A stretch of DNA of 64,000 nt, from positions 5,706,001 to 5,770,000 of the forward strand of contig OZ076409.1 in the NCBI GenBank assembly GCA_964187785.1. The letters run 5' to 3'. Shown here piece after piece: positions 1 through 33,930 of this stretch. Each line of letters begins with the position of its first letter. Position 1 is the stretch's first letter. Source of the DNA: Amphiscolops sp. MND2022. Taxonomy: Eukaryota. The notes beneath the pieces were generated by a model. The model saw nothing but the letters and a program-made list of their open reading frames with translations. It searched no databases and was not told the DNA's origin. The translations under genes were made by a program, and so were the position numbers.

Positions 1-1751
1 ATAGCAAATTTCAACAACCTGACTACGGAAAAGGACAAATGGAAATTTATAAACGAATCCATAAATGCAAGGCGAACAAAAACTGAAATAACAAGCCTAA
101 AGAACTGTTTCGGCGACCATGTAACAGACCAAAAGAAAATTGCAAACCTACTAAATTTTCGGTTCTCAAAATTAGGGGACTATATGGGGACTGCTAGGCC
201 TTACGATCCGCCAACAGTACCCGAAACAAAAATCACGAAAAAAGTATTCTCGTTTCAACCCACTGTAGAAACGTCATTGCTGAGCCCCTTTGCTACCTAA
301 TCAATGCCTTCATCATGGAAGGAAATATTCCAAATCATTTGAAACACGCTTTGGTAACTCCTATTTATAAAAAGGGAAACAGAGAAGACCCATGCAATTA
401 TCGACCCATCTCAATAACCCCTGCCCTATCAAAAATTTTCGAAAAAATTCTAAGAAAACAAATGAATGAATATCTGGAGGAAAATCAGTTATTAAGCGAA
501 ACACAGTTTGGTTTTCGAGCACGTTTTTCAACAACCGATGCATTACTTTATGCTACTGAAACTATCAGGAAAAATTTAGACGATGGCGAAAATGTCGCAC
601 CAGCTTTCTTGGATTTATCAAAAGCCTTCGATTCCATATCGCATGAAATCTTGTTAAATAAATTAAAGCAATATAACTTCGACCCGATGTCAATCTCGAT
701 GATACGAAGTTTTCTTTCCGAAAGATACCAAAAAGTAACACTTCCAAACTGTCACTCAGATTGGATAAAACTATACCAAGGTGTTCCTCAAGGAACCGTA
801 CTCGGTCCATTACTATTCAACATCTACGTTAATGATATGCAGCATGAGGTTCAAAATGACTGCAATCTTTTGCAATACGCAGATGATACCATGGTGTTCA
901 AATCAGATAGTAACATCGACAAAGCAATAGCCTCACTTGAACAAAATGTGAAGAAATTAGTATTCTTTTTTGAAAGTCACCGGTTGACCATCAATGCTGG
1001 CAAGACTGAATTTATATTTTTTTGTAAAAAAGCAAAAAATGATTCGATGAATAAACTGAAACTCAAAGTTCACAACCAAATAATTCCGGCAATCTCTAAT
1101 GCGAAATATCTCGGTGTTTATCTGGATCAAAATCTGAACTACCAAATCGAGATCAAAAATATCCTCCGCAAGATGGCACTGGGAATAAAAAGTCTGTACT
1201 CTGTACGAGACATATTCCCCCAAAAAACCAGGAAACTGCTTTTAAACGCCCTAGTGGTGAGCCACTTGCACTACTCAGCTATCTTACTAAGCGGAATTTC
1301 AGAAAACCTTCTTACCACTTTAGAGAAACAGTTAAATTGGGGAATAAAAGCATGTTTTAACCGTTTAGAATATGATCATTCATCAGATCTCAAAGTTCAG
1401 CATGATATCCTTGCAGTCCGATATCTCTTTCAAAGCAAAAATGCCAACTTCTACTGGAAATGGAAAAACAAAAAACTTCCGGCTTTTGCAGGGAAAATGA
1501 AATTTCCTACCGGTGACATAAGATCCCACGAACGAACCAAAAAAGTCTACTTCAACATCCAATGCAAAACTGACTTTCTTAAGAAAAGCTTTTTCAATAA
1601 AACAGTGCCCATATGGAACGAGTTACCTGACAAGCTAAAAATTGGGAAATGTACCTACATAACAACCAAAAAAAACATCAAACAATACTTCCTAAACAAA
1701 TATGTAAGTGAAAAAGACAATTTCGAATATGGAAAAAAAATGTTGGAGTGA
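1..1751 (+). pseudogene. Non-LTR retrotransposon (LINE, CR1/L2-like) ORF2 reverse transcriptase; runs off the window start, with an internal deletion/frameshift near 265
   Basis: ORF 315-1751 has PIYKKG..D..NYRPIS, QFGFR, FLDLSKAFD, GVPQGTVLGPLLFNIYVND, YADD and KYLGV. Frame 1 from base 1 also reads as ORF2 sequence and shifts frame near 265-275. Confidence 0.9.
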
Positions 1752-2915
1752 ATATCGCTTTCGATAGATTATCTGTATTGTTTCTTGCAAAACTTAATGA
1801 TACCTCTTTCCTACTTTAAACTAAAAAAAATGTAAATACACTACCTTCTGAAAATAAATTACTATTTTATTGTCATTTATTAATGAAGGAAATACAGTGT
1901 TTTTTTTTTATATCCAACGGATCCTCATATCGATTTTTTCAGTCCGGGTTCAATTCGATAGCGGAAGAAAATTAAAACGACCTTTTTTGAAATAAGTATA
2001 ACAACTGTTCGCGTGTATTCCACAACCAATTCAAATGTCGACGGACTATGTTCCTGCATACCTTTGATTCTGACGTTGAGTGTTCTCGTGCAATTGCTGT
2101 TCAGTATAAAATCTTTCAGACTGGACGTTGAAGCTTAGACAGCAATACATATGGTCTGAATGATTGTTTTCAGTGCCTCATGTGTTCATAAAAATGTACC
2201 AGCTAAAACTTGTTTCGGGTTTCGTCGAGTTTCTAAATCTACTCATTCTGTGAAATGGAAATTCAGAAAAAGAGCATCTTGGTTGAGTGGCAAACCCAAC
2301 GTTTGGTAATCCCGAACGTTATGAATATAAATTGGAAGATATTAAAATTCTATACGAGTATACAGTGTCTACATATTTGTCTAGACATATATACGGATGA
2401 CGGGGTGAGTGGAACAATATGAAAGAAAAAACAGGCATATCATCCGACCGGTTAATAGAAAATTGTAGCATCATATGTGAAAGGTTGAATTTTTACATGG
2501 TTTGTACCACCACCAGAACGGATAATGAAGTCTTCACCCTCAGTTGTTCCTTAACTAGACCGAATACTGCAGCTGTGTTAGCGTCTCTTTACAGTACTCC
2601 CGCTCCCGTTCAATCGTAACAAAAACTATAAACAACCAACAAACTGTGATGCCATGATGCTAGTCCTCAAAGATTCTACAAATCTGAAATACTCTGAACT
2701 TTTAACCAAAGTAATTAGTAAAGGTAATCTCATTTGAAAGCTAATTATTCTAGAAGAAACTTCACTTAATATATCCTGTACCAAGCTTCTTAGATTCATC
2801 CTGTTGCTGTCACATTGTTAATTGATGAAACCTACCCTAGTTAATAGAATATATCTACTCGGAGAAGTTGAGAATTCATCCTGACGATCGGTCTTCTCTC
2901 CAGCACTTCAAGAAC

Positions 2916-3055
2916 TGAGATCTCAGAAACAGATTGTACTTAGACCTAGCTAGCTATAAGGTAAAAGTAAGACGACTCTGCTGTTAAAATCTTAGACTTC
3001 TTATGTCCGTAATAAAACAACTAAAAGAAACAACCACCACACTTTTAACAGCTCA
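2916..3055 (+). repeat. 5' LTR of element A
   Basis: Matches 19417-19555 with about 4-5 differences; contains TATAA and AATAAA. The start could lie up to 5 bp further left because GAAC precedes both copies. Confidence 0.9.
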
Positions 3056-3057
3056 AT

Positions 3058-3070
3058 TGGTGCGACCAAG
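3058..3070 (+). promoter_or_regulatory. Primer-binding site of element A (tRNA not assigned)
   Basis: TGGTGCGACCAAG starts 2 nt after the terminal CA of the LTR. Confidence 0.75.
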
Positions 3071-3209
3071 AAAATTCTTCTTTCTCTCCCATTCATTTCA
3101 CAACTCTACAATTGTTTTACACCTTTTCTCGACTTTCTCATCCGATATCTCTTTGTTCGACACACAGTTTCTTTACCTCTCAATATAGCCTACCGTTATT
3201 AACTTCAAC

Positions 3210-3475
3210 GTTGCAACCAATTTCCACTAGAAATTGATTCGTGTTGCTATGGTTCTGACTGCGTCTCCTCACGTAATTCCTGTCAGTTACATTTCTTGGT
3301 TCTGACTGCGTTTCTCAACGTAATTCCTGTCAGTCATATTTCTTGGTTCTGACTACGTTTATTCGCGTAATTCCTGTCAGTTAAAATTTTTTCGTTCCAA
3401 CCACCTCTGAGTGAATTCGTGTTGGCTTTCTCTCTTTCTTCCGTTCCAACCGCAGACGTGCGATACGTGTTGGCC
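3210..3475 (+). promoter_or_regulatory. Array of six bulged stem-loops in the 5' leader of element A
   Basis: Units start at 3213, 3255, 3302, 3349, 3397 and 3446. Each has a 5-bp outer stem, an inner hairpin and a 3' bulge AT(T/A)C(G/C)T. Confidence 0.7.
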
Positions 3476-3782
3476 CTTCTACAGTGCTATCAAGCGATAC
3501 CTGCTAGTAAAAAAAGTTCTTTGGTTCTAGCCGCTCGGATCAACTTTAAAGTTGGCACACCTACATAACATATATTTCTTATATAACACCATTATAACAC
3601 TTTTCTTTCTGTCTCTTCTATAGTACAAACATCCTACAAAACTCTTTCAAAACAAGTTTACGGATCCAAATACATAACAATTAAAATATATAACAAATAT
3701 ATTAAACTTCATTTTTTCTACATTTATATATTACACTTTTATACAACCTCTTTGACACACTCTTAATTGAACTCTATTGTAC

Positions 3783-4156
3783 ATGCCGTCATCTGTAGAC
3801 ATTGTAGTCAAACTCATTGTTTGCTTTTGGTTCTCTATTGCTATTGATGCCGGTCTTGCACTTTTTCTTGACAAATTCATAATTTCGTTCATACCAAAGT
3901 TTTAAAGTACATCCTTCTCCTTCTATGTTAACAAGTAGAGTACTACCTCTTTTTGGACTGCTTAGTATTTACCATACTTTTTACACTTATCCAATATATA
4001 CAAAACCCATTCCTTCTTTTCATAAGTACAGCACTTACAATCTTCTTACAAGTTGTATTCACAGACCAAATCTTGCCATGTATTTCACAATTCAATACAA
4101 AATATCTTCTTTTCCAATACATCTGTCCTTTATGGCAATCTTATTATACTAACTAA
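3783..4156 (+). pseudogene. Putative small hydrophobic ORF upstream of gag (ORF0), disrupted
   Basis: ATG 3783 frame (MPSSVDIVVKLIVCFWFSIAIDAGLALFL...) joins the 3953-4156 frame via one frameshift near 3900 and one stop at 3929. Confidence 0.35.
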
Positions 4157-4171
4157 ATCTTACACCATATA

Positions 4172-7100
4172 ATGCTTCCTACTCCATTTACATTAAATAC
4201 AGAAAAAAGACAAAATCGATCTCTCATACAAGATGTAACACCGTTTCTGAATAACATCATTTTTCAGTACACAAATCCACTTCCATTTGAAACAAAACCC
4301 CATAGAGTACATACTATTGCATTAGCAAGAGAACATTGTGATTCTTATCTTTATTACATTCGATAATAAAACACTTGAAATAACATCATCACAAACCCCT
4401 TTTCAAGTTATTTTTAACCCAGTTAAAGGAATAAACTCTGGAACATTTTATGGAACCATTCACCCACAAAACATTAAACTTTCTATACAAGATGTTTTCC
4501 GCACATATATGCACAAACTCATCGAATTCAATGAAAACCAAGACACACCACTCTATTGTCCTTCTCACCTACAAGAACTAAAACACAGATCTGAACATTT
4601 CGAGGTCCCTGATCTTGACACAAAAGTTCAAAGACATGATAACCCCTATTATTGGCTACAACGAGATATTTTACAAATAAAAAGTTTTCATAACAGATTC
4701 TTTAACAACATTATTCTCACGGATGACACTATACCTCAAGTCAAAATTTTTACCCAATTCCTATTAAAGTTTCTTAGATTTAACTATCAATTACTTTGGG
4801 AACAAAAAGATCAACAAGCTTACATTAACTTCCCTCAAATATTAACACATATAGAACTTTTACCATACATTATCAAAAATGAAAACAAACATTTACAATA
4901 CAGAGATCTAACAGCATTCAATGTTACACATTTTGAACAAATAAACTTAGATCACAACTTTTTGCTTGAACATTCTGAAACATCAGATAACAGACCTTTT
5001 ATTACATCCGATACTTCTCATGAAACAACTTCTGAAGAACAAACTTCTAATGTTGAACCTTTATATACGAGACAACAATCAGAACAATCAGAACAAGAAG
5101 CCCTTGCTAACCTTTTTCAAAATTCTGATCCCCCTCAAGAACAACCACTATACCCACCACTATCACAAATCTCAGATATACAACAACCAAATCCTTCTGA
5201 AACAACTACAATTCACGATATATCAGAATTCTCTGAAGACACAGTACAAAATACACGAAATTTTACAAAAACTGATGATTCAAATATCATAATAATTCCT
5301 ACCCACAATATTACACAAAACGAATTTAACAACCAAAATCAAGACAACACTTTCACTACCAATCCAGACAATACCTCTGTTTTATCTACATCCAAAACTA
5401 ATATTACACAACCTTCTCAGACACAAGTACCAACTCCTCGAAACTATAATCCACCTCCTGTTCCACCTCAATTCTCAACTCAGATAAACACCCATAATTC
5501 TCCTCAACAAAGCTCATCAAATACACACCATATTACACAGAACACTAATACAGTACATTTTCAAACACCAACCCCACCATCACCTGCTGAAATACATACT
5601 TCAACTTATTTTCCAGCTCAAACTAACCCAGTACCAACTACACAACCTACATTAAATAATAACACCATTCATTCCAACCCATCCTTTAATTATACCACTG
5701 CCAGACATCTTTCTCGACCTCCATTACAAACCATATTAACTAATCCATTATCGTACAGTCTTACCAGTACTAATCCAGAACATACACAACAATCTCAGAT
5801 AAATTATAACACACCCAATCCATTAAATACTCTTTCTTCTCAACATACGTCTAATACAATCACACCTACATTACAAACTTCCCAATTTCAAATACAAAAT
5901 CCTCCTTCAACAACAATTAGAACCAACCCTCACTTTCATAACACTTCTACTACTTCCTTAACTAATATTTCAAATAATCCTACTTACAATACTACACAAC
6001 CATCTACCGTATCTTATAATACTATGTCACACCCAACATATATTAACTCTTCTACTTCTATATCGGAACCCTTTTGATGGACTAAATCATAATTATACAC
6101 CTGAAGAATATTTACAACATATTGAGGCACGTGTTACATTCTCCTTAGGTTTACAACCTACATCAGAACATGAATATAAACTTTGGCACGCTCGTCGCAT
6201 GGCTTTCATACAATGCTCTTTAACAGGTACAGCACTTAGCTGGTACATTTGTTTAAACAACACCTATAAACATGATTGGCACGCTTTTGTACAAGCTTTC
6301 AAAAAACAATTTTCCTCACAAAAGAACGCTTATTATGCTCAAGTTGAAGCCCTTAATTTAATCAAAAAATACATCGAAACAGTACGTCAATTTGCACTCA
6401 AAGTTCAACAGCTGGTTGAAAAAGGCTGGTGCAATGAGAATGCATCCACTATTAACCTTAAATGTAATGAAATCTTTACAAAAGGACTTCCCAAAAATCT
6501 TAAAGACTTTGCAAACAAAAGGCAAGTAAAACACACTTCCACTGTTTTAGAACCTTCAATTCCTTTTCATACATTAGTAAAATTTGTTGACGCTGAAGAT
6601 ATTGCAAACGACAAAATCAGAACACATGATCTTGCACTTGAAATAAACAATATTACAAAACAGTTGAACACTCAAACTCTTGACCCTTCATCTCAAGAAC
6701 AACTTATGTTTACACAACCCAAAGATCCAAATAACAAAAATAAACCTGCATATAAGAAATATTGCTCATACTGTCATCGAACAAATCACTCCATTTCTGC
6801 TTGTTTCAAAAAACAACGAGATGATGAAGATAAACGAGAAGCATATGCTTGATCTAAATCTCCACAAAAATCTTTTGTACAATACTTCCGTTCTCCTTCA
6901 AACGATAGAACAAAACACTATGATACTCGATACCGAAGTCAAAGTACCTCAAGAGACAACTCTTACAAAAAAAACTACTCATAAAATCGATACCGTTCTA
7001 CATCTAGAAGTAGATTTAGTTACGATAAAAGTACTACTCGTCCACATTACTCTACATCACGATATGATACATACAAACGTGATTCCCGGTCCTACCGTTC

Positions 7101-10100
7101 TCTTTACTGATCTTCATACAGATCCCCATATCGACACAACTCTCGTCCTAGATACAGATCACGCTCCTATTCCAGAGACAACAAATTCACAAAATATACA
7201 AATTCATACAGACCACCTTCAAGACCAAGAGACTCTAGATTTTCTAGATCTCGCTCACACTCCAATTCCAGAAACAAAATTAATATGATACAACAACAAG
7301 ACCAATCTGACCCTATAAAATTTGAAGTACATATGTATCACCCAACAGCAATGGCAAATGCTGTCACACCTACAAGTTGGTTTTATACATTATATGTACA
7401 TACACCATCAAGTATAGTACAAAGAGACAACCCATCTAGATTGGAAATTGCATTCCTTCTAGATAGCGGTGCTTCTATTTCTGTATTAAATTACCCAACA
7501 TACATAACATAATTCGACCAACTCGAAATTCCAAAACATTTAGCGTTGCAAACCAAACTGAAATTCCTATTTTACATTATGCAAATACAATTTTGAACAC
7601 CACTATTGACGAAAATTCTCGTTTCTTTTCAGTACCTTTTGCAGTAGCTGATATCAAATACAACATCCTTGGTACACCATTCTTTGAAGATAATGTACAA
7701 AACATAAACATACAAGACTTTACACTCGAATTCAAATATCAATCAAAAACACACCCAAATTATGCAAAGTTCACAACACTCCTATCTAAAGACTACCCAT
7801 ATTTCTCTTACGTTTATAGAATTAATTCAAAGACTCAAATACGCCTAAAACCCAAGTCTCCAAAGTTTGCTTATTTTCCAATTAAAAATTATCATAACCT
7901 CCATTTTACAACTACTCCACAAAACCACTTCTTCCCTTCAGTACCTCATACCTATTTTGCTACTAAATTTCGTACAAATTTCAATTTTATTGAAGTATTC
8001 ACTGATGACAAACCAGATATCTGTGCAACTATCATCCAAAACACCTCAAAACATGTTGCAACACTGCCTACAGGACAAATTGGATACATTGAAGTTCCAA
8101 TTACTAGTGAAAAAGCCAAACTCTTCCAAGTTAATGATATTAACACTTTAATACAAAATGTTACTCATACCTACCATCCTGAAATCACTGAACCAGTTCC
8201 ACAAACTAATTATATCGTACAATACGATGATCTTTCAACCCCTCCTCCTCAATTCTCTTTACATCAAATTTATATGACAAACGATGACATCCCAAATCAA
8301 ACTTCTCTTTTATATAACGTTCAACCTACTTCTCATACTTCCGAAAAACGCAATTTTCCTTCTCTACCATACACTTCTGAAAATCTGAAATTTATTAAAA
8401 AATTTAACTTCCAATTTTCTGATCTTACAGACCCCGAATACATTACTCTTTGCAATATGTTACTCAAGTATAAAACATGTTATGCAACTCATAAAAACGA
8501 TGTTGGAAAAATTTCAACACCCTTCTGTATTCGACTTAAACCTAACGCTCAACCTTTGACACAACGTCCTTCTAAAGTCCCTATTCACTACCGAGACAAA
8601 CTTGATGTACTTCTCAAAGAACTCGAAAAATAGAACATTATCAAACAAATTGGTTCCTCTCCACAAGACAAACCCGTTTATGGCACAACTTTTTTAAACC
8701 CTCTCAAAATATTCCCCAAGGGAGATACTATAAAATATGTATCAGACGCTCGACATCTTAACTCCAATACAAAACAATCTGATGAATCTTGGCCTATTGA
8801 ACCACTCGCTCCCCAATTAGCACGCGCAAACAAAAAGTACAAATCTGCTATTGATCTTATGTATGCCTATGCACATACACCTCTTGATGAAGACACTATT
8901 AAACTTACCAGTTTCTCCTCAGGAGATAAACTTTTCGCTTTCATACGAGGCTTTTATGGTCTCAAAGGACTCCCAAACTTCTTTACAAAACAAATGTCTA
9001 CCTTCTTTAAAACTCTTATAGAACAAGGTTTTGCTCTTGTCTACATTGACGATATATTACTTTTATCTGACTCTAAAGAACACATGTTCCAACTCATGGA
9101 ACAACTACACATAATTAGTACAAAAAACAATCTTAAACTAGCCCCTGAAAATCCTTTTTCATGCTTCTTAAAGTCAAATTTCTTGGACATGAAATTGGTT
9201 ACAATACAATTAAACCAATCCATTCGAAAATTGCAGCTATTCATAAAATACCTTCTCCAACTGGAAAAGTTGCCGTAATGAGTTTCATTGGTGCACTCAA
9301 TTTTTACACCAAATTTATTGAAAAACTACATATTAACCTCAAACCATTTTACGATCTTTTACATGAGAACACTCCTTGGAAATGGACAGACGAACACGAA
9401 AGTCTCTTCCAAAAACTTAAAATGTCTCTCACTTCTGAAACAGAACTTACAATACCAAATACAAAACATCCATTTTTCATTACAGTTGACGCTTCCCTTA
9501 TTGGATTAGGCGCTGTCTTATTCCAATTAAATGAACAAAACAAAATGAAAGTTATATCGTACAACTCTCGTATACTTAACCCACAAGAACAAAAACTCTC
9601 CACACTTGATAGAGAACTTCTCGGTATAGTACATGCTCTCCAAATTTATGAATTTCTTTTCATTGGTTCTCCCCATCCAATACACATTTTTACTGATCAC
9701 AAACCTTTATTACATTGTTTTTCAAAGAAAGGTAACCTTAGTCCTCGTTTCTATAGAGCTCAAATGCAATTACCAAAATTTTTGAAACTTAAAATAATTC
9801 ACACTCCTGGAAAAAATCTCTCTATTGCCGATATGTTAAGTCGCTCTTTTACAAAAGCTGAATTACAACTCAACCAATTAAAACATAAACAACTTCCACC
9901 TCAAATTGATTTTGCACTTCTACAAAATAACACTCTTAAACCTGTACATTACTTAATTAAACATGAAGAAATCTTACCTCATCAAAAACATGACTCTCAC
10001 CCAATTCTCGCTGAATATGGTACAGACCAATTCTCTATTCGTATCAATGATAAAGGAAATGACATTGTTGTCAAACCGTTACAACCTTTCTCATTCAAAT

Positions 10101-12255
10101 CTTTAACTCCTTTCCAAACCAAGTTCATCATATATATACCAGATTTCCAAAATCTGACTCTTCTTTCCTACATGACACAACATTACAAACAGAAAACTAT
10201 TCTACTGTTAACCAATTAACCCCAAAAACCTCACAAAAATCTGTTTCTGCAAAAAATGTACAACCAAATCTACCATCTCTCACACATTGTCCACAGATTA
10301 TACCTTTCTATTATACATCATTTTTTAAGTACAAAAACTATTTTCAAGGTTTTTTCCTCCCCGATGACTATTCAATAGACATAACAACACTTCAACAACA
10401 ACAATGCCAAGGCCCGGTTCTTAGAACTGTTTATTCTTGGATCATAAAAAATGAAAAACCTGAATCTCTAACACCACTTATCATGGCACTCCTTTTCTAC
10501 ATGCTTATTACAAAAGATTTTCAGAACTTTTTATAGATGACTACACAAATCTTATTAGCCTTTACACTAAACACCCTACTACTCTAAACCAATCTTTTAC
10601 TCCAGATTTTGTACGCGCTACTATTCGAATATGTCTTCCATTTCGACTCTTCAAAACTGTTTTTAACAAACTTCATGAACACTCACATACAGGCATCAAA
10701 ATCACATATAACACATTCGCACAATATTACCACATTCCATTTGTTGAAAAATGGCTTTCCATTTTTATACATGACTGTATTGAATGTCAACGCAATAAAC
10801 ACTTCAACATGAAAATTCAAACTGCTCCTACACAATCCTTTTCTGAACATGCTCCATCCTTCAAATACCGCATTTCAATGGACACTAAAGGACCTATTAA
10901 TCCTCCTTCCCACAACAAATCATATATAAATGTAATAAGTGACGCTTTCAGTCACTTTGTTGTTACAGTACCCATCAAATCAAACAACGCAAAGACTGCT
11001 ATCAAAACTTATCTCACCATTGGATTATTAAATTTGGACAACCTATATATCTTGTCACTGATCGTGGATCAGAATATGTTAATAAAGAAATGGCACACCT
11101 TCGTACACTTATGGGAATTCGTCACTCTTTAAGAACAGCTTACTCTCCTTGGACAAATGGCCTTGTCGAAGTACAAAACAGAAATCTTGGTACACATCTA
11201 CGAATGTTCTTACATGACACACCTAAAGATTGGGCATTCCAAGTCCATATGTACGCTTATGCACATAATTCACAACCACTTTCAGAACTCAGTATTTCTC
11301 CTCATGAAATTGTTTTTCACACCAGACCCAGAATCCCCCTTATACGTTTGATTTAAATCTCAACCGAAACACCTCTAAAACATGTATTTCACGCTATTGC
11401 TCTCAACTTCCAGAACACTCCCACTATGATAAATCCGATCTTAACCCATTTTTTAATAAAACACTTTCAAAACCCATTCCACATTGGTTTCTCGCCGTAG
11501 AAACTGCTATATTACAAATTTATTCCACAGTATACGAAAACACTTTACGAAAAATCAATTCACACGCATACATTACGAAAACATACCACGAAGGTAAACC
11601 CCTTCCTATTGGCACCTTTGTTTTAAAACGCAAATTCACACACGTATATTTTTCTGACAAACTAAAACCCCTTCGGATTGGACTATACAAAATTATTGAC
11701 AGACTATCAGATGTTACATATGAACAACTTGCACAAGATGGCTCTACAATACATGTTCATAAAAATCATTTAATTCCATATTATCCAAAAGAACCACTCT
11801 TATATCCACCTTTGCGTAGTTTCATGCGCTTTTCAGACTCAACTCAATTCCAAATTCCACAACCTACCAAATATGCAAACAGTGATTCTTCCCCTTTCAA
11901 CTCAGACGAATCCTCATCAGACGAAGATTCTCAAACATTCATGACACCAACCACAACGGATAATTCTTCTCAAACATTTGTGACACCATCATCATTTAGA
12001 ACGTCCAATCAAAATACACCATCTACAACATCCAATGACAAGTCTTTAACTTCCTCAACCAATGACAACTCCTTATATAAACACATAATTAACACCCCTC
12101 ACACTAATATCTCTAGTGACAGATCAAGACACCCTTCTAATAACCAAACAACTTCACTTCCTCCTCTAATTGACAGAACTACTAAAACTACTTATAAACT
12201 ACAACAACAACCCAAATTAGATTACAGACTTTTTATTACACCCTCAAAACTGTAA
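4172..12255 (+). pseudogene. Element A gag-pol polyprotein (capsid, CCHC, RS-rich segment, protease, RT, RNase H, integrase); many stops and frameshifts
   Basis: Gag core LTGTALSWY; knuckle CSYCHRTNHSISAC; LLDSGAS; YIDD; VDAS, RELL and TDHKPL (RNase H); ISMDTKGP, TDRGSEY and NGLVE (integrase). Confidence 0.92.
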
Positions 12256-12304
12256 CCTCATTATTCTATCCGCTGGCTCACTCAAAACTAGTCACTACAG
12301 CTGA

Positions 12305-13582
12305 ATGCAAGATAACCAATAACAAGTTATCTCAAGATAACCTGTTGAAAACATTTCAAGAATCCTGGATTCTTCCTCTGATATATCTCCATCAGCTCCA
12401 AGTATTCCTTCTACTTCTGAATCTTCAGTATCAAACACTACAAACTCTAGTAATGTAACTCCTACTACTCCTTCTAAAAGACCAAGATCATACGTTTCTG
12501 AAACAACATCTTCATCACTCCTTCATAGACCACCTATAACTGAAATACCTATAAACACTCGTACTCAACAAATTCCTATTAACACTCCTATAGTACACAT
12601 ACCAAACCCTGAAAGTCTTGAATAATACGTAAATTACAAACATCCTACAGCTATCAAAACTGTTAGACTACAACCTCAGCTCAATCTTGTACAAATCCCT
12701 GATACTGAATATACAACATTACCTTCACTGAAATTACCATCAGAACTTAGTACTACTCCTTCAAAACTTTATCCACCATTAAAACCTCTTCGGAAACCTT
12801 CTACATCACTCTCAAATCTCTTAGACAATATATCAGAATACACTCCATCACAAGATACAACAGGCTCACTTTTTGTACCACACCATAGATATAATCTTCG
12901 AGATCTTCCTTCAAGAAGACTTAGTACAGACACTTCTACACTTAATCTATCTGCTCTTTCTAGCACTTCTACTTTAAGACTCCTACGACAACACGCACAA
13001 CCGTTGTCTTCTGAAAAAAATTCTTCTGACTTTATACCTTCTCCATATTTTACATCTGGTTTTGACACCGCTTCTCTACTTTCCTCAGACGCTCAGACTG
13101 CATTCCCTTCCGGAAATCTATTCTCAGAAGTTATAATACCTACTCCTGTCCCCGCACATATTAGAACACCTGAATATTATACTGCAGATCAATTTAGACC
13201 TCCAACTCCAAATTTTGCTGACTACCCACTTAGAGTCGATGGTATAACCATCTACGACCCACAGCACGATCCTAGATTTCCTATCCTTGCAGAACGTTTC
13301 ATTACAAATAAAGATCGCTTATCTCACAAAAGAAAGGAAACACAACTAAAACGCCTTCAGACACCGAATTTAGAACTCAAATTTGAAGTAAAAGTCAATT
13401 TCCAAGGTTTATATCCACATCCAATATTTCACGTCTCAAAGATAGAACATAAAACTTCTCCTGCTCCTTTTGAAGTGATACACATTGATTTTGAACGAGA
13501 CCTCAATATACCTACTATCACATATGGCAAAATCATATTCTGTAACCCATACTCAGGTCTTAAATATACTACCACTTTTTGA
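12305..13582 (+). pseudogene. Element A ORF-X: Ser/Thr/Pro-rich N-terminus plus conserved C-terminal domain; three in-frame TAA
   Basis: ATG 12305 is in frame with ORF 13004-13582. Shares ILDSSS, PSAP, VHIP.P, LYP.L, YNLR, RLLRQHAQP, RPPTPN, LKFEV and NPYSGL.Y with 56997-58469. Confidence 0.75.
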
Positions 13583-16229
13583 ACTCCTTACAACTTCATA
13601 CATAACAATTCTCATACTCTATTCACACTTATTTAACTTTACCTTTTCAATACCCATAACACCCTCTGACACAGAAAACTAGCTTCCATCGGATGATCCA
13701 AATATTACAAATCTTATGGTTTCTCATTATGACTGGGCAAAACAACACAATTTGAGACAGTTTAATTTACTTAATGTAAAACAATGCCTGAAGCTCCTTC
13801 TGACATTAAACATGCAAGTGTTAAAGCCCGTGTATATGTTCGCGCAAAAGCTAAACGCATCAAAGCTTTTAAATGTGTTGCTTATGCAAAGAAAGAAAGG
13901 AAAGTATGCTTTCAAGGCTCCGTAAAATACCGCCGTGTTGATAGAACTGTATGGAATCATAATACATTACCGCTTCCTGTTACTCTTGATCCATTAGAAT
14001 GTAAAAACATTATCAGACATTTAAATGGTACAAATGATAAAATATTGAACAACCTCCATTACAATAAAACTTTCACACTCTTAGAGGACCATTATTTTCA
14101 AGAACGATTGGAACAATATCAAACTCCTTTCACCGTATACCAATTGAACAAAATGTACACAGGTACATTTACATTTATGCCTGCCGATAAAAACTGGATA
14201 TATGACCCTACTCAAAACCCTTATCATAACTGCCCTGCTCATCACCAATTCGAAGTTAACCTAGTTAGTTGGCGATTAGAAATTTCCGAAGTAGAACTTA
14301 CTTATGATGACACATCTAATGACATGATAATAGATGGACATACATTACCCTGCTACTTTGCAGATGGTTTTTGTAAACCCACAACGAAAACCCCTTTTAC
14401 TCTTGTTTGGTTCGATGATGACTGTTGCCTACTTTTCACATTACAAGATTTCATTGGTCGTATGACTAAAATTGAAGATAGATATTGGATTGAAACAGAC
14501 TCTTTTGTACATTCTCCACACTCAATAAAACCGAAAACAACTTCTGGTATCAAAGGTACAGAACATCCCTATGTTTATGCTCCTCATACACAACATCCAA
14601 ATAACCCAAGTCTTTCAAGTTTTCAAGTTTTTCCTACAGCACAAACCTTTTGTGGTAAACCAGACACTCTTTATTCTACACGATACTCAGACCTTTTTGT
14701 TACATACACCGATGGTTTCAATATGCATACAGGACAACCCAATCCTCATTCTATGATTGATGAATATATTTCTGGTAAAATAGTATTGGACACTTCAAAT
14801 AACAAATTTATATTCCCTGCATTAAATGTTTCAAACAATTTTGCTACCATTGACTATGATGCACAAATAAACACGAAAATAGATTACACTATTAACCATG
14901 TTTTTAGATCAATGACAGTACAAGAACTAAATACTGTACATACCATATGTGAATTAGAACGAAATCAACTTCTTACAATACTCGCAATGTCAGTACAAAA
15001 TCCTCAACTTGCTGGTTTTCTTTTACCCGGTAATCGAAGTAATTTCTTATACGTTGAAGGCTCAACCGCCTGGCTTAATGACTGTCCTCATTTTTTATCC
15101 CCTTTATATAAAGCTGATAGATGCTTTGACCGTATACCTATACACTTTAAAGATGCATTAATGTACGTTGATCCTATTACAAGACAAATCTATGACTATG
15201 CTACTCCATTTACATGTGATAATACTCCACGAAATCTTATTGAACTAGATCCTGATTCTGATGATCAAGACTTTTACATTCTTGGACCTGAACCTATTAA
15301 ACGCAAACCTCCACTAATGTTTACACCTTCACAAATTAAAACTACAATACGTCCTAACACTTTTACAGCTCAAGATGCTGGTATATATTCTAATGCAGAA
15401 CTTGACCAATTTTGGAACCGTATTTTATTTTCCAAACATTCTGATTCTACACTTCAATTACTAGGCAAAGCTCTTAGCTATTCTTTCACTTCATCTAATA
15501 CTCCTAAGTATGATGCAGATTCCCCTCAAGATTCTGGTAATCCTTATAATACATTACGTATAAGACTACATGACAAACTCTTGAATTCATCTCCTCTTTT
15601 TACGCCTACATGGTTTTCAGATGCTTTTATTGCACTTTTTGGATACCCTTGTTATATTCTCACACAATGTGGTATAAATTTTTCTACATTTCTTTTTGTA
15701 CAAGCTACTCTTACACTCATTGTCAAACTTTACAAAACAATATCTATTAAAGATAATCTCAAAAATAATATTACCTTACTTAGTTCTATAGCACATGGTT
15801 TTTTAATGTTCTTACAGCACGAATGGTCAATGACCTCAATGAGACTCAAAACAAAAAACCCAAAAGTACACTTTTAAAATCCAAATCCTTAGATAATTTT
15901 ATTGACACTTCAACAAATTTAATTAATCATTCTACCGATGTTACTTCCCCCCACTTTTCTATACTGAACGTCCTAACAAAATTCAATTTCCTAAATTTAA
16001 CTTGTTTCCGAAACGACACATCAATTCTCACCAAAAAACAGCTCCTTTTCCTTTCTCTCCTGTTCAACATCCTCCACTTCCCAATTATACTCATAAAAAA
16101 TTTCATCTGAATGACAATCTAACTACTCAACATGACACTTTAATTAACAATCCTGTCACCTCCAATACGGATACACCAATTAAAATATATTCACGGATAA
16201 ACTATCCTTTTCCTCCTCCATCTTCTTGA
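13524..16229 (+). pseudogene. env: Element A envelope glycoprotein, gB/chuvirus-G-like; disrupted
   Basis: ATG 13524 opens a hydrophobic leader in frame with MVSHYD (stop at 13680). Main ORF 13784-15877 is Cys-rich with a C-terminal TM segment and aligns with 54397-56967. Confidence 0.85.
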
Positions 16230-16500
16230 ACACTCTCTCAGTTTTTTGCAAACTCTCTTCCAGCACACTTGCCTACTACTTCTTTTCACAATTGCTACTC
16301 CTCCACCACTTGAAACCCTTGCAGAAGTTCATCTTCCTCAATCCAATAACACCTCTCTAATCATAACAATCTTCAAACCCTCTTCACCTAAAGTTGATAA
16401 ATCCACTCGTTAGTGTCATTTAAAGTACTTTCACTTCAAAGTGATACGGCCTTTTGGAATAGATAACACTGTGACTGTTGATGTTTTTCTTTTAAACACA

Positions 16501-17829
16501 ATGACACAAGCAGAAATTGATCTACAAACACAGCTTGAACAAGCAACCCCAACAGATCTTATAACTAGACCTCTTTCAAATTATTCTCCTGTTCTCTATA
16601 TCGAGACTTCTGAACAAACACCTCCAATTTTTCTTGAACAAATGGAACACACAAAAATTGAACACGAAAAATCAAAACCTACTCCTTCACAAGATGATGA
16701 TGATCATACACAAACAACACCACCTCCTCCAAAAAAGCGATATGAAATTATGAAAGATCCAATCTTTCTTTCTTCACCAATATACCCTCCTTCAAAACCT
16801 TCAAAAATTTCACTTTGCACGAATTGTGATGATCATTTGATCCCACTTTTTTCTAATGGCGATTTTGTCTTTAAAGCACAACTAATTTTTTTATATATGC
16901 ACCCTACTGATTATTCATTTCACTTATATGACACAAATCAAGATTTCTTCACATCAATTGCCTCCACAATAATGGGTCCATACCAATATTGGCTCGATAA
17001 TGGAGTCAAAATTTTCTCTCTACAATTCAATTTTCTCCGTCCTTCTATCTACGATCTCAAAACAGATGAATCTGATCCATCTTTCCTTTCTATTTCACAA
17101 AAAGCTACTCATCATCAAACATATACTAAATTTCTACAATACACCAAACCACAAAATCACATTTTCGTCAATTACAAATATACATCACCGTTCACAATGA
17201 CAAATATGTACACTCTTGACCACTCTTGTATAACAGGCTATCTTCGAAACTAAGACCCTATAAAACAATACTTCTGTTTGCTTCCGTACAATAATACTTC
17301 ACGTTCACTTATTGTACCTCAAGAATACATCATACATTACCATGACTTTTTGTTGCCTTGCAAAATTCCTACACAAATTGTCAAACCTCTCACTGTCTTT
17401 AAACACCTAGTATCTTCTCCACTTGACGATAAAGATAGAACTTACTATACAGCACTCTACAAGCAAACGTATTTCTACAATGAACTTCTCTTCATTTCTG
17501 CAAAGACTATTCCTTTTATGGTACAAGCTGAACAAAAAACAGAACATAAATCACACTCTTCACCTATAAAAAACGCTCCTGACAAACTTTCCTCTGTACT
17601 GAATAACCGAACACTTCGCGACATGACAAATTTACTTGAACCCCATAAACGAAACTCCTCTGAAACACCTATCACAACACTCACACATATACTCCACTGC
17701 TATGACAGAACACATAAACTTCTTCAAACACTCGATTTAGACTCTCAACGCATCACTCAATCATCCCAAGCGATTCAATCTGCTTTGGAAACTATAACTA
17801 CTCTTTTTAACTCAACTAATTTTCATTAA
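16501..17829 (+). pseudogene. Element A ORF-Y, unknown accessory protein; one internal stop at 17251
   Basis: ORFs 16441-17253 and 17278-17829 share one frame and align with 52638-53945 (TSIAS, FSLQ.NFLRPS.YDL, KFLQY, KYTSPF, IVPQEY). Confidence 0.8.
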
Positions 17830-18245
17830 ACTCTTCTACAGGTAATACAAAATTCTTAATTTTCCTTCTCTGATACACTCTATGATACATCTTTGACACT
17901 ATATCAAAGGTATTTAGATTTTTACATACTTAATCAAAGTGATATCTTGCTTTCTGAATGAAATCTCAGGATTATCTTTAAAGTACATACTTCTTTCCTA
18001 CAGTACATGTCAAAAATAACTATTTATGTCTAAAAACTACGATACAAGACATACAAGACAGTATAGCACAAAACTAAAGATGATACATTTTCGCACCAAA
18101 TCTTGTTGTACACCTTTGACTTGTCATTGCCATTCTTCTTAAACTTCTTTTGTTTTAGAAACATCTATTCTTCTTCCTCCTCCATCCGCATTCTTTCGAA
18201 ACATTTCCACTTCTCTCTCGTCACTATCTTCAGAACCTCGTCAAC

Positions 18246-18696
18246 ATGACTCCCAATGCTGAAACAGAAGACATTATTACCATGACCTCAGATTTCTCAA
18301 AAGTGCACAGCCTCAAAGCCGCCATATTCCACACCATGGCATTTAAACTCTCGCTCGAAATAAACAAAAACAAAATAACTCCGAAATCTCTCATTGCTTT
18401 CTTAAAGGTCCTTTACAATGTCACACAAATAAAGAAAAAAAAATACATTTGATCAATACTCGCGCATTCACCTTGAAGGCCCAAAAATTGCCATTTGCGA
18501 AACGGCGTCCAATGTCGTTTTCGTCTTAAATTCCTCCTTTACTTCAAAGGACCAATACTTCCGTACCGCCCTACAAGAAGCCAATGACGCTTTCAATAAC
18601 ATGCTTAAAGATTTCGGGAATACTCAAAAATTAGAGCTATATGACCCGCTCCAACACCAAGCTCATCCAACTCAACAACATCCTCTCTTGGCATAA
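18246..18696 (+). pseudogene. Element A ORF-Z, ~150 aa; one frameshift in the A-run near 18440
   Basis: After the shift it reads FDQYSRIH, matching FDQYLNIH in 51639-52115; same position and similar size. Confidence 0.55.
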
Positions 18697-19416
18697 ATAA
18701 AACTACTTACATTTTCTCACTCTTCAAATACATCTCATCTTCACTCCTTCATCCTTCTTCGATGATGTCTCGAGATGTGGTTGCTGATCACTCCTCCAAA
18801 GAACTTTGCTGACACTTCTCACTGCTTCACGCACACCCTCCAGATGGTCAACATCATCCATCGCCACTGGGTTCTTCCATCTTGACAACCTGCTTCTGCA
18901 ACTGTCAACTGGTCTTCACAATCGTCACTGCAATGCTGACTTCTTTCAACTTGACTGGTCTTCTCACTTTGCTCCACTGAACTGGACTCAATTCACTTGT
19001 CACGAACTGAACTCGCCGCAATTCATTTGCCAATTTCAAACTCTTTATTAGCCGTAAATGTCAAACTGTATCTTAAAAACTTTATTGTAACTTTAACGTA
19101 TAATCTTATTTATTGTAAATTCATAATATAATCTTAATAACGCATTATCTTATCTAATCTTAATCTTGTATAATCGTACTATAATTACCCCCTCTAATGC
19201 TAAACCCTTACAAATTTTCATCTATAATTATCTTTGTAACCGCAAAATATATCTTCCCAAATTATATCCCCATTGTCATGTGCATAATACATCTATTTAA
19301 CAATTCTATAATCCACATCTTTTACAGAACACAAGTCCTACTTACAGCACAAGAAATTTTCGAAGATTTTTAGACGAAAATTTTTTTTTTACAAAACATG
19401 TTCTACACCTTTGAAC

Positions 19417-19555
19417 TGAGATCTCAGAAATAGATTGTACTTAGACCTAGCTAGCTATAAGGTAAAAGTAAGACGACTCTGCTGTTAAAATCTTAGACTT
19501 CTTATGTCCGTAATAAAACATCTAAAAGAAACAACCACCGCTTTTTAACAGCTCA
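19417..19555 (+). repeat. 3' LTR of element A
   Basis: Direct repeat of 2916-3055. Confidence 0.9.
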
Positions 19556-19572
19556 AAACCAAGTACTTCAAC

Positions 19573-20870: not shown

Positions 20871-21252
20871 TGTTGTGTACACAATATGATTGGATTAAAA
20901 TAAACAAATAACAAGGCACTTTAGCACAATAGCTTAGCGCGTTCGGTTTCTATTCCAAAGGTCTAGAGTTCGATTCTCAGAACCGGCGGAGTCTTTGGTA
21001 AAAAATTACTAAAATACCGTTTTCCACTAAAATACTCTTTTCGATAATTTGCTGTCTCGAAACTTTAATTTGATTGTCTATATTAGTAAACAACTTTTGT
21101 TATTTTGACAGTTTCTTCATTTATACCATTGTAGCTTTCTGAATTCATATGACACCAGTTGATATTCAATATTGGCACGAGAACAATACAATATTCAGTT
21201 GCTTTCTCTCTAAAAACGAGATGTAGAGACCGGATTCTATAACACTCTTTTA
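20871..21252 (+). repeat. BEL/Pao 5' LTR
   Basis: TGTTG...TTTTA, repeated at 29869-30250. Confidence 0.93.
20915..20987 (+). other. tRNA-derived (SINE-head-like) segment inside the BEL LTR; second copy at 29913-29985
   Basis: A-box-like TAGCACAATAGCTTAG and T-arm GAG-TTCGATT-CTC (B box) at tRNA-like spacing; no good acceptor stem. Confidence 0.6.
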
Positions 21253-21269
21253 TGGTGGCCATAGAGAGG
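21253..21269 (+). promoter_or_regulatory. BEL/Pao primer-binding site
   Basis: TGGTGGCCATAGAGAGG directly after the LTR. Confidence 0.75.
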
Positions 21270-21742
21270 CACGACTTCTTTGGGTAAGGCGGATACTTTC
21301 TTTGGACGCCTGTTGGTTGTTTTAGTCCAATCCTTTCCATTGTTTCTACCTTTCATCTCCCTTATTGGGCTAATTTCTTCAGTAACAGAACAATATTTTG
21401 CAAATACTGAATTGACATATTCACTTTAATGTTGAACGGAAAATGCTGCTGAATGAGAACAGTTCTGGGCAATTCTTCAATGAGTACTTCTGGACCTCTT
21501 CCTTTTGAGAAAACTACTTACCTTTGGTAGTATCTTCTCTTGGAAAATGTCGAAATTAGCTTTAGTGAGTTATTTTCGTTGGGAAGTTGTCACTCTGGTT
21601 GTAATTTTGCATCGTCACTGAAGATAAGAGTCCTCAAATCCTACCAAATTTACCTCCATATGTTCACCCTCAGTATTCAGTCAACTCTGAACCCTCATCA
21701 TCGATTCCACCGAAGCCCGGAATAAACCACCCGAAGCACCGA

Positions 21743-22884
21743 ATGTACCCACCCCCCGAAGATGAATTCATGGTCGTGAGTACCCGAAAAAAAACTTTAA
21801 AAGCTTTGCGCTTCAATTTTAATTTATTTTGCAAAGCGTTTCTTGAAAAAACCAATAACCCGAAGAAACATTATTGTGCTAATAGCTTCGAGACAGCGAA
21901 GTTTGTCAAATTCGAGTCACTTTTTTGTGTTATGTAAAACTTTCAGTTTCTTACGAAATTTGGAAAGGGTGATTGAAAAAAAAATTAAAGTAACAATTTC
22001 CTAAAAGACACAAAATTTTGATACTCTTCTTTCAAAGAGAACTCAAAAAAAAGGTTCAATTCATAATTATCAACTGAAATTCGGCAAAAAAGTTGGACAA
22101 CTGAGTGCTAATTTCATTTTTGCTTCTTGTAAAAAAATTGTCCCGAATTTTCCATGTAAGCTTGTTCCAGTTTGAAAAATTGTTGTATCCGCCCTTTGAT
22201 AATCCGTGTAGCCGAATGAAAAAATCTTGAGAAAACAAAATCAATTTTGCGCAAATTGTTGTAAACAAATCACGTATGGTTTTCATATTGGCTGCTAGTT
22301 CTTTGCACCATGCAATAGAAACGTTAACTCCCGATGAAAAAGAACATTTCAATGACAAAATTTATACCATCCCGGGCCTAAGTCTTAATCCGTTGAGGAA
22401 AAATCTGAAGAAAATTGTCTAAAATTTGCTTTCGAAAGATCTGAAAGATAAAAACAACATTATTATTTGGCATGATGTCCTAAATAACAGCATTTCTCGT
22501 CATAATAGTAACAACTTCTGTGCATTATCAGTGTCCGAATTGATTGAAATTTTGAAAAGCTTTCAGAAAAAACTCAGTGCTCTGGTGTACTGCCACCGCT
22601 TTCGTACCCCCGAGATCTTTGAATCATTGAAAACATTGGAAACCGATCTTGATATCAAAGTATTCAATATAGTCAAAGACTTTATTTCTCCGAAAAAACA
22701 GAAGGATGCCGACCTTTTGAAAAAATTTAAAGCTTTGCATCAAAGCCCTGAGCTTGAACTAAAAAATTTGTACTTTCTGCTCCGTAAAGAGAACGCACTA
22801 TCCTCAATAACTGATAAGAGCCGACCCCAACGGCCAAGTAAGCGTGCCCGTAACGCTGCGAAGAGAGCCGCTGCCTCTTTTTAA
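21743..22884 (+). pseudogene. Degenerate ORF with SGNH/GDSL-esterase-like blocks (LINE ORF1-like) inside the BEL element
   Basis: The frame of 22426-22884 extends upstream through one stop. Blocks VFILAASSL, TIPGLS, IIIWHDVLNN and ALHQ fall in SGNH order, followed by a basic tail. Confidence 0.5.
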
Positions 22885-23297
22885 TCTCAGTTAACAACCC
22901 CCCCCCGCTCCTTCCAGCTGTTGAGACAGTGTCCGAACTTCACTGATCGGTTGAAGTTTCTTCAGCTCTTCCTTCTTTTTTCAGAGTTGTGTCCAGTCTT
23001 GACTGACTGGTTGATACTCTGAAAAAACGTTTCGTCCCTCACCCGCACCATCGTCAACTGACACCGCGTTTCTTCAACGCGACTTTGAGTTTATCGTGTT
23101 CCGTCCTCGTAGTCTGTGACTACTTTTAACTTAAAACAAAAAAATTGCCAGTTTCTTCGTTGAAGCGCTGTAGAAACAGTGTTGTCACCGATAATCACCG
23201 TTCTTTCTGCCACAAAACTTTTTCCTGAACTGTGTCCAAACTTAATTGTTTGATTGACGTCTGCAAAGTAACCCGATTCCCTAATTTTGACAACGTA

Positions 23298-33861: not shown

Positions 33862-33930
33862 GTAAGTTTTGATCATCTTGCGGATTTTGATCATTTTGGG
33901 GATTTTGATCGTTTTGGGGATTTTGGATTC
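33862..33930. repeat. Short minisatellite, 18-bp unit
   Basis: About 3-4 units resembling GGATTTTGATCATTTTGG. Confidence 0.7.

Follow-up and report, generated by a model that had tools for sequence, protein, structure and literature searches.

Three conserved accessory genes in a probable env-bearing Ty3/gypsy lineage from Amphiscolops sp.

The window described here is a transposon-rich stretch of 64 kb (contig OZ076409.1, positions 5,706,001 - 5,770,000) inside the 1.07-Gb assembly of Amphiscolops sp. MND2022. It holds a decayed retroelement, A, and most of a young one, B, both of which end in short long terminal repeats (LTRs). A and B are very probably members of two out of at least three diverged families that make up a single env-bearing Ty3/gypsy lineage of very high copy number. 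Besides gag-pol and env, each carries three additional open reading frames (ORFs), called X, Y and Z below, and all three are protein-coding genes under purifying selection in both families. That they are genes follows from their homology between families, their integrity in other copies, the ratio of nonsynonymous to synonymous substitutions (dN/dS) in their own frames, and the evidence of a third family. The original prediction, made from the letters of the window alone, had described two diverged families of an enveloped gypsy lineage with three conserved accessory genes in a common order. The genes are indeed conserved, the order is the same in both elements and the divergence is borne out, but the number of families is at least three (A, B and C), not two.

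The plan of the lineage is a short LTR, a leader of 1.2 - 1.9 kb, a single giant frame for gag, protease, reverse transcriptase (RT), RNase H and integrase, then X, env, Y and Z, a 3' untranslated region (UTR) and the second LTR. The part that A and B visibly have in common runs from gag-pol through X, env, Y and Z to a 3' UTR of about 1 kb and a short LTR.

Selection on the accessory genes

Values of dN/dS were calculated by the method of Nei and Gojobori between B subfamilies that are 4 - 12% apart in the DNA of the integrase-X stretch. They are conservative, because mutations that occur after insertion push them toward 1. X gives 0.13 - 0.25, and its DNA yields 0.63 - 2.48 in the two alternative frames. 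Y gives 0.06 - 0.20 (0.03 - 0.18 in its core) compared to 0.87 - 3.26 in the control frames, and Z gives 0.09 - 0.31 compared to 0.66 - 6.35. For reference, the integrase gives 0.03 - 0.16 and the 3' UTR 0.61 - 1.23 across its three frames. The constraint is uneven along X: residues 351 - 490, counted from stop to stop, are the most constrained (0.01 - 0.15), and the first 120 codons are hardly constrained at all (0.34 - 1.45). The original prediction had named ratios near 1 in the extra ORFs, or their absence from other copies, as signs that would speak against it. The ratios are far under 1 solely in the genes' own frames, and the ORFs are present, and mostly open, in the other copies.

The copies themselves were counted as follows. 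X is open in 6 of the 10 fetched B loci as well as in the window copy, with 488 - 496 residues from stop to stop; one of the ten (L051) has no recognisable ORFs and was left out of alignments, yet kept in the counts. Y is free of stop codons in 88 of 96 scored matches to the B query, in 140 of 150 to the A query (N-terminal 250 residues) and in 92 of 94 to the query P0125, the last set including family C. In all 30 young B loci Y is open over its 435 residues, and in 26 of them Z has at least 150 residues. The Z of family A is open from the sequence MAPNAE, over about 150 residues, in 9 of 11 other A loci.

In a tblastn comparison of B with A, X is 41% identical (E = 7e-56) and Y is 38.5% identical (E = 3.5e-75), so that both align clearly at the protein level, as had been claimed. 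Z is far more diverged. The Z of B has no tblastn match in A at 1e-3, and when the B protein is compared by BLASTP to an intact Z of family A, the sole shared piece is the motif K(I/N)xF(D/E)QYxxIH (E = 0.009 in a single comparison), which is the one shared motif noticed originally. Within family B there is a subfamily copy (L057) in which the Z region has 68 - 75% DNA identity to positions 51639 - 52340 (dS 2.5), whereas its flanks are 94 - 97% identical and its Y has a dS of 0.14. This divergence suggests either that Z has been exchanged between lineages or that Z is hypervariable.

The third family, C, was reached through P0125, a homolog of Y in a representative protein library. Matches in this library are dominated by copies from this genome or close ones. 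The best match of P0125 in the present genome is only 46 - 50% identical, which suggests that P0125 comes from a second host species. The family C loci are 59% identical to B in the integrase, 37% in X (478 residues), 53 - 56% in env and 35% in Y, with X and Y in the same order as in A and B. Because family C carries X, env and Y, the lineage must be older and wider than the two copies of the window. Four of its loci (L061 - L064) have, in the position of Z, an ORF of at least 207 residues that starts with MSEYPSS and is cut off where the loci end.

X, Y and Z are soluble proteins without a membrane segment. None of them, nor any of the family-A pieces, matches a Pfam family. A profile of X has no match in the Protein Data Bank (PDB), and residues 300 - 490 of X gave no usable match in the ESM Atlas. 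The profile of Y finds only cofilin in the PDB, with an E-value of 0.21, and nothing usable in the ESM Atlas. AlphaFold2 models of Y have a mean predicted local distance difference test (pLDDT) score of 35 with 12 sequences and 51 with 115 sequences. The better model, itself poor, has no Foldseek match at E ≤ 0.001 in the PDB or BFVD, and query TM-scores are below 0.15. X and Y show no detectable paralogy by hhalign (probability 0.1). The three genes were not recognised when the window was first read, and they match none of the Pfam, PDB and ESM Atlas families searched. No described family with this gene set was found in the literature, Repbase, Dfam and GyDB lying outside the scope of that search.

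The elements and their families

Element A lies on the forward strand and is 16,645 bp long (2912 - 19556). Its LTRs, at 2912 - 3056 and 19413 - 19556, are identical at 140 of 145 positions; the 145-nt 5' LTR contains a TATAAG-like box and AATAAA. No target-site duplication is recognisable. The string TGGTGCGACC, which resembles a primer binding site (PBS), is found at 3058 - 3067, 1 nt past the 5' LTR. The copy is dead, with several frameshifts in gag-pol, stop codons in X and Y, and frameshifts at the start of env and in Z.

Element B lies on the reverse strand and is 18,312 bp long, running from 50380 to the window-equivalent position 68691, about 4.7 kb past the window edge. Its 3' LTR (50380 - 50620, 241 nt) adjoins the target-site duplication GCATT. 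The 5' LTR lies beyond the window, at positions 5452 - 5691 of locus L031 (window-equivalent 68452 - 68691, reverse strand). The two LTRs are 99.6% identical over a 241-nt alignment and the 5-bp duplication GCATT is present on both sides. X, env, Y and Z are all open in this young copy. Both elements had thus been correctly spotted, but the limits of A move from 2916 - 19555 to 2912 - 19556, and B extends outside the window.

The LTRs of A and B have only short strings in common, such as AACCACCACAC and CTAGCTAG, in line with the first description. The PBS-like string TGGTGCGAC stands 0 - 1 nt past the 5' LTR in both elements. Tandem repeats occur in the non-coding parts of both. In B a 13-nt unit is repeated 4.7 - 6 times at 51531 - 51632, just past Z in the 3' UTR (50621 - 51638, reverse strand), and in A a 47-nt unit is repeated 2.8 times at 3250 - 3383, past the PBS. 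These repeats may be binding sites for a host factor or for a factor of the element.

A first look returned 6,839 - 8,273 candidates per query, of which 96, 150 and 94 matches were scored; the candidate sets of the different queries probably overlap. Numerous B copies are 99 - 100% identical to each other in Y.

The coding strand is poor in G. Its composition is 38% A, 21% C, 11% G and 30% T in B, and 35, 24, 10 and 31%, respectively, in A. Across the three families (for C, loci L061 - L065) G makes up merely 7 - 11% of the coding strand, and glycine makes up about 1% of X, Y, Z and the N-terminal part of gag, and 3% of env. Since open and selected copies share the bias, it characterizes the lineage itself and does not stem from decay. 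Deaminase editing or a bias of the reverse transcriptase are possible causes.

The gag-pol frame

The leader of B measures about 1.9 kb. Behind it comes a frame of 2,099 codons that starts at an ATG at the window-equivalent position 66552 and, within the window, occupies 60253 - 64000 on the reverse strand. The frame encodes a domain-free N-terminus of about 640 residues, Retrotrans_gag with a zinc knuckle, a protease, RVT_1 and RT_RNaseH_2. It ends at an in-frame stop (60253 - 60255), which falls between RNase H and the integrase. The integrase follows at 58590 - 60252 (rve, E = 9.6e-18, and Integrase_H2C2), with a tail that is frameshifted near 58851. Seven of ten other B loci (L044, L045, L047 - L050 and L053) have neither the stop nor the frameshift and read through as one continuous frame; two more (L046 and L052) are frameshifted there, and L051 is unrecognisable. 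The gag-pol of A is a remnant at 4232 - 12255 on the forward strand, recovered by tblastn as pieces in frames 1, 2 and 3, with Retrotrans_gag in 5962 - 6852. Identity between B and A in gag-pol and integrase is 33 - 74%, the lowest value being that of the N-terminal part of gag (33%), and the other long pieces being 53 - 74% identical.

The Pfam families that score above their cut-offs are Retrotrans_gag, RVT_1, RT_RNaseH_2 or RT_RNaseH, rve and Integrase_H2C2, whereas SH3_Tf2-1 and Integrase_p58_C remain under theirs. The order of the pol domains, protease, RT, RNase H and integrase, is of the gypsy type. The knuckle of gag has the form CX2CX4HX4C, and the motifs DSG/DNG and YIDD are visible in pol. 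The LTRs of 145 and 241 nt, the PBS next to the 5' LTR and the 5-bp duplication of B are as in Ty3/gypsy elements. The Pfam search of gag-pol found gypsy-type families and no retroviral Gag or other retroviral-type domain. On the basis of these domains of gag and pol, the accessory genes would have been gained independently of the retroviruses, as had been proposed.

The part of gag that precedes the capsid-like domain is unusually long, about 640 residues, and of low complexity. It corresponds to positions 1 - 3555 of L031 (reverse strand) in B and to 4326 - 6077 in A, and matches no Pfam family. Such a stretch may constitute an additional functional module.

The envelope protein

The env of B (54397 - 56967, reverse strand) encodes 856 residues, with a signal-like N-terminal segment, one membrane segment near residue 704 and a tail of about 135 residues. 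The env of A (13784 - 15877, forward strand) is 63% identical to it; its N-terminal part is frameshifted, with a piece at 13665 - 13787 in another frame. In Pfam, env matches PF24664 (Monjiviricetes_fusion) and no other family; the B protein does so with an E-value of 6.7e-25 and 87.6 bits, against a cut-off of 27. PF24664 is named for the class that holds the Jingchuvirales and the Mononegavirales, and the assignment is at the level of the Pfam family, not of a direct comparison with a chuvirus G protein. Judged by this family, env is a Monjiviricetes or chuvirus-like glycoprotein. A phmmer search of the PDB with env gave no match. The lineage carries an env, as proposed, but this is not the F-type (class I) protein of the classical errantiviruses, which is homologous to the F of baculoviruses or paramyxoviruses.

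Expression of ORF-X and env

The X of B extends from a CTG at 58308 - 58310 to a stop codon at 56997 (reverse strand, 437 residues), within a stop-to-stop frame that reaches 58469. It is separated from pol by a spacer (58470 - 58589, reverse strand) with a purine-rich stretch and two mini-ORFs of 3 and 25 codons. The X of A occupies 12365 - 13582 on the forward strand when read from the corresponding CTG, and is interrupted by an in-frame stop at 12623 - 12625. There is no Met codon in the 437 - 444 codons of X in B, the 310 - 340 codons in A and the 478 codons in C. By comparison, Y has 6 Met codons in 435, env 10 in 856 and the integrase 5 in 648.

The lack of ATG is not confined to the frame of X. 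From the pol stop codon to the env AUG, a distance of 1.3 - 1.6 kb, the sequence is nearly free of ATG in all three frames. The whole of B contains 272 ATGs, or 14.9 per kb, and the longest stretch without one, 1,183 nt, extends precisely up to the env ATG. The only ATG-started ORFs in B past the pol stop are the two mini-ORFs and then a single ORF of 12 codons, after which comes env. The ATG desert is shared by A, by all 10 B copies that can be aligned (9 fetched loci plus the window copy) and by C, in which positions 2077 - 3667 of locus L065 hold one ATG. Its significance was estimated from 5,000 permutations of codon order, which preserve both the composition and the absence of Met codons. 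One ATG was observed against 7.3 expected in L045 of family B (p = 0.002), two against 7.6 in L050 of the same family (p = 0.007), and one against 7.7 in L065 of family C (p = 0.002). No ATG depletion was found by permutation in the controls, namely Y, env and integrase.

At the head of X, all 15 copies compared, drawn from the three families, retain the in-frame sequence AT(A/C)-CTG-GAT, with an A at -3 and a G at +4. CTG accounts for only 12 of the 591 Leu codons of these ORFs (2%). The conservation of the X protein between families begins at this codon.

These observations point, somewhat more strongly than to any other scheme, to X and env being expressed from one shared subgenomic mRNA. 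Translation of X would start at the conserved CUG, which has a good context (A at -3, G at +4). The ribosomes that pass the CUG would move on through about 1.3 kb with hardly any AUG and initiate at that of env, by leaky scanning. The env gene itself is dense in ATGs, with 61 in 2.6 kb, and because of this Y and Z would need mRNAs of their own.

The start of the putative Y mRNA may be marked by a short non-coding block of 32 nt. The block is at 16456 - 16487 in A (forward strand), 14 nt 5' of the Y ATG, and at 54112 - 54143 in B (reverse strand), 167 nt 5' of the Y ATG. It is identical at 30 of 32 positions. No other non-coding sequence of A and B is aligned by blastn, and 100 shuffles gave no match. 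Within the block are a mini-ORF and an AG preceded by a run of pyrimidines, and it would mark either a splice acceptor or a site of internal transcription initiation. In family B only, the Y leader also contains what looks like a small intron (53973 - 54081, reverse strand), with GTAAGT, about 105 nt, and TTTTAG. All 30 young B loci and the 5 subfamily copies retain both of its ends. The string GTRAGT occurs just three times in the whole B element: in the LTRs and before Y.

Possible functions of ORF-X, ORF-Y and ORF-Z

The N-terminal half of X is disordered and rich in Ser, Thr and Pro, and the C-terminal domain is tightly conserved. Read from the CTG, the protein begins with LDSSS..PSAP in A and B, and PSAP is found at residues 9 - 13 in 7 of 8 sequences. 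A YPxL string is present in all 8 X copies of the three families, and stands at an aligned position in 21 of 23 rows of the alignment A3. P(T/S)AP and LYPxL are classical late-domain motifs, which bind TSG101 and ALIX, respectively. Neither P[TS]AP nor PPxY, the late-domain motif that binds Nedd4, was found in gag-pol. The late-domain-like motifs, the position of the gene before env and the combination of a disordered N-terminal half with a conserved C-terminal domain are the reasons for suggesting, tentatively, that X is produced alongside Env and serves as an adaptor, either for budding or of a matrix-like kind. The PSAP near its N-terminus and the conserved LYPxL would recruit the endosomal sorting complex required for transport (ESCRT) through TSG101 and ALIX, which is the job of Gag in retroviruses, and the conserved C-terminal domain would dock to the particle.

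The Y of B (52638 - 53945, reverse strand, 435 residues) has an acidic N-terminus, a basic patch, a conserved core at residues 96 - 300 and long C-terminal helices. The patch reads KRKY in B, and KRKY/KKRY overall. The Y of A (16501 - 17829, forward strand) has an in-frame stop at 17251 - 17253; in other A copies it is open over about 442 residues. The Z of B (51639 - 52115, reverse strand, 158 residues) has a basic middle, an acidic tail and no membrane segment, and the Z of A (18246 - 18696, forward strand) has a frameshift in a run of A at about 18433 - 18452. By analogy with Rev, Tas and CERV, it can be suggested weakly that Y and Z act in the nucleus on the expression or export of the 18-kb unspliced RNA; of all the proposals made here this is the weakest.

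Alternative explanations

The main rival to a CUG start with leaky scanning is splicing that supplies an AUG. A small 5' exon, derived from the leader or from the opening codons of gag, would be joined to an acceptor before X, in which case the CTG would merely encode Leu. Spliced-exon starts are used for Bet of the foamy viruses and for the env mRNAs of some Drosophila gypsy-group elements. X does lack an AUG, and plausible acceptors lie between the cluster of ATGs that follows pol and the CTG in all three families. Moreover, Cer1 produces CERV from a spliced mRNA, according to the available part of the report (PMC10309623). However, family A has an in-frame TAA 8 codons 5' of the CTG, which leaves only about 24 nt for an in-frame acceptor; the CTG is retained in every one of the 15 copies even though it is so rare a Leu codon; and the B leader contains no GTRAGT donor, which leaves weaker donors as candidates. 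Splicing is a serious contender, with a chance well below even. A less favored explanation for the missing AUG is that X is not a gene of its own. It would then either extend pol at the C-terminal end, through a frameshift or readthrough, or form a leader at the N-terminus of Env. Its place between the two genes would fit, and a few database proteins (P0342 and P0366) do fuse integrase with X. Yet the frame offset from pol to X is +1 in A and B and +2 in C, and the gap of 125 - 250 nt has stops in all frames, for which reasons X as a frameshift product of pol was rejected. In addition, env begins at an AUG of its own, behind which lies a signal-like segment, the X stop lies 5 - 150 nt 5' of that AUG, and the fused proteins form single-member clusters, as mutated copies would. 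An extension of either neighbor is accordingly very unlikely.

The origin of the accessory genes has its own alternatives. A negative-strand RNA virus could have been the source of X, and perhaps of Y and Z, all captured along with env; X, for instance, would be a matrix-like gene that precedes the glycoprotein. The gene order of many mononegaviruses is N-P-M-G-L, the env is of the Monjiviricetes kind and X lies directly 5' of it. The N-terminal PSAP and the conserved C-terminal domain of X also recall VP40 and the rhabdovirus M protein, in which an N-terminal late domain is followed by a C-terminal domain. Nevertheless, no similarity to any Pfam family or PDB chain was found, the library of viral structures gave nothing for Y (with a poor model), and all the homologs found share the G-poor composition of the element. 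To our knowledge chuvirus genomes comprise L, G, N and a small protein, with no M before G, which also counts against a joint capture. Such a capture is improbable, if less so than the extension of pol or Env. The least credible proposal, close to negligible, is that the extra ORFs are useless passengers, that is, captured host fragments or frames that stay open through skewed composition. They do lack known domains, and a G-poor sequence has fewer TAG and TGA codons. But the composition of B is calculated to give about 6.8% stop codons, so that 437 - 490 open codons are not expected, dN/dS is 0.06 - 0.31 in the true frames only, and the order and homology of X and Y hold across the three families, with 35 - 41% protein identity between B and the others.

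The most far-reaching reading is that the lineage followed an independent path to the organization of a 'complex retrovirus', with a chuvirus-type Env, a CUG-started and ESCRT-recruiting X, leaky scanning to env, and regulators Y and Z made from their own mRNAs. As a whole, this combination is given a probability of roughly 0.3. Several points weigh against the explanation favored here for the elements, their expression and the roles of their proteins. The placement of pol in Ty3/gypsy is by Pfam domains alone. In family A the ATG depletion is not significant (locus L056, two observed against 4.8 expected, p = 0.11), and every family has one or two short ATG-started ORFs within the desert. The CTG sits in a conserved I-L-D motif, so its conservation is partly at the protein level. 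The transcripts, splice sites and start codon are predictions from sequence. PSAP is absent from the X of family C, and YPxL-type strings are expected by chance at an estimated 0.5 per protein of the composition of X. The functions proposed for X, Y and Z are based on motifs, position and analogy, and the models of Y (pLDDT 35 and 51) give no usable fold.

With three orphan genes kept by selection in the two window families, and X and Y also in a third, genome complexity like that of the lentiviruses and spumaviruses arose outside the Retroviridae. Elements of the gypsy group that bear env are known across animals and have been treated as three-gene elements. In the far-reaching reading the element, with near-identical copies in the thousands, may still move today and perhaps pass between cells. 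The way in which an 18-kb retroelement expresses several downstream genes becomes testable: the AUG-free stretch with its conserved CUG is a concrete model of translation, and late-domain motifs outside Gag are a concrete hypothesis of budding. These families also make up a large share of the genome, so that their annotation matters for the assembly.

Other features of the window

Between A and B there is what looks like a very recent insertion of a BEL/Pao LTR element (20871 - 30168, forward strand), with two identical 300-nt LTRs, a GC content of 45 - 48% and an open frame of 2,158 residues that contains Peptidase_A17, DUF1759, DUF5641, RVT_1 and Integrase_H2C2. An open frame of 478 residues at 315 - 1751 (forward strand) matches RVT_1 (E = 2.2e-39) and no other domain was found in it; it is probably part of a non-LTR retrotransposon. 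Weak RVT_1 and rve pieces in GC-richer DNA at 33909 - 36819 (forward strand) are the remains of another retroelement. Three pairs of direct repeats, 70 - 119 nt long, 74 - 91% identical and spaced by 0.5 - 1.2 kb, lie between the elements at 45225 - 46725. An Rfam scan of the whole window gave no match at the gathering score.

Comparison with known systems

The complex retroviruses, that is, the lentiviruses and spumaviruses, have several accessory genes around env and more than one subgenomic mRNA. Their late-domain motifs are in Gag, whereas in A and B such motifs are found in a separate protein, X, next to a gag and pol of the gypsy type, and their accessory proteins are unrelated in sequence to X, Y and Z. 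The proposed use of one mRNA for X and env has a counterpart in the bicistronic vpu-env mRNA of HIV-1, from which env is reached by leaky scanning. A further parallel in mechanism is the rice tungro bacilliform virus, where the first ORF has a non-AUG start and a long stretch nearly free of AUG permits leaky scanning to the ORFs that follow. This plant pararetrovirus, of another family and host kingdom, translates ORFs I - III of its pregenomic RNA in this manner, whereas here an accessory gene and env would be served.

The Drosophila errantiviruses, which are about 7 - 9 kb long, are gypsy-group LTR elements with an envelope gene 3' of pol, as are A and B. They have an env of the F kind and gag, pol and env only; the present elements have a PF24664 env and three further selected ORFs, and measure 16.6 - 18.3 kb. 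The available text of Chary and Hayashi (eLife 2026, PMC13524379) describes the env of these errantiviruses, among which are gypsy, ZAM and Idefix, as being of the baculovirus F kind. According to the part of Stefanov et al. (2012, PMC3383448) that was available, 'upgrades' by accessory genes were 'not shown for the errantiviruses'.

The closest known elements are those of Chary and Hayashi (PMC13524379), in whose accessible text 114 elements have a gypsy pol beside a Chuviridae-like glycoprotein of the gB type. Their hosts are Coleoptera, Hymenoptera, Polyneoptera and Hexanauplia, they form multicopy families with near-identical copies, and the fold of the bridge that links RNase H to integrase separates an 'insect' from an 'ancient' group. 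A and B likewise have a gypsy-type pol, next to an env that, judged by its Pfam family, may be related to chuvirus glycoproteins. That work treats gag, pol and env; its main text does not contain the word 'accessory' and has 'additional ORF' twice, in general remarks. As far as this text goes, none of X, Y and Z is described, nor is an AUG-free stretch or a CUG start, a distinction drawn from the description and not from the sequences. The PBS string of A and B had no match in its supplements. A similar glycoprotein serves as env in mosquitoes, where the accessible part of Dezordi et al. (2020, PMC7642597) reports BEL/Pao elements with a captured chuvirus glycoprotein. A later account by Dezordi et al. 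(2023, PMC10084718), in its available part, notes gypsy fragments beside such glycoproteins with 'no clear evidence' of gypsy capture. A Jingchuvirales-type env would be common to these mosquito elements and to A and B, but the backbone is BEL/Pao and not gypsy, and the parts of these papers at hand describe no accessory genes.

Extra proteins in related elements are of a different kind. Cer1 of C. elegans is a gypsy-type element with an orphan protein, CERV, that serves the element itself, being needed for the export of unspliced genomic RNA according to the accessible text of Sun et al. (2023, PMC10309623). Cer1 has one such protein, from a spliced mRNA, and differs in host phylum and in the kind of env, and the likeness to A and B is one of description only. 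Extra conserved ORFs past gag and pol are also reported, in the parts available, for LTR elements of bdelloid rotifers (PMC5408684) and plants (PMC7264820). These belong to other hosts and are other proteins, and no three-gene set around env appears in those parts. The literature on late domains in gypsy elements, as searched here, gave nothing that names gypsy. An env-bearing gypsy element with a chuvirus-like env is already known; the conserved set of three accessory genes, the AUG desert with its predicted CUG start and the late-domain-like protein are new.

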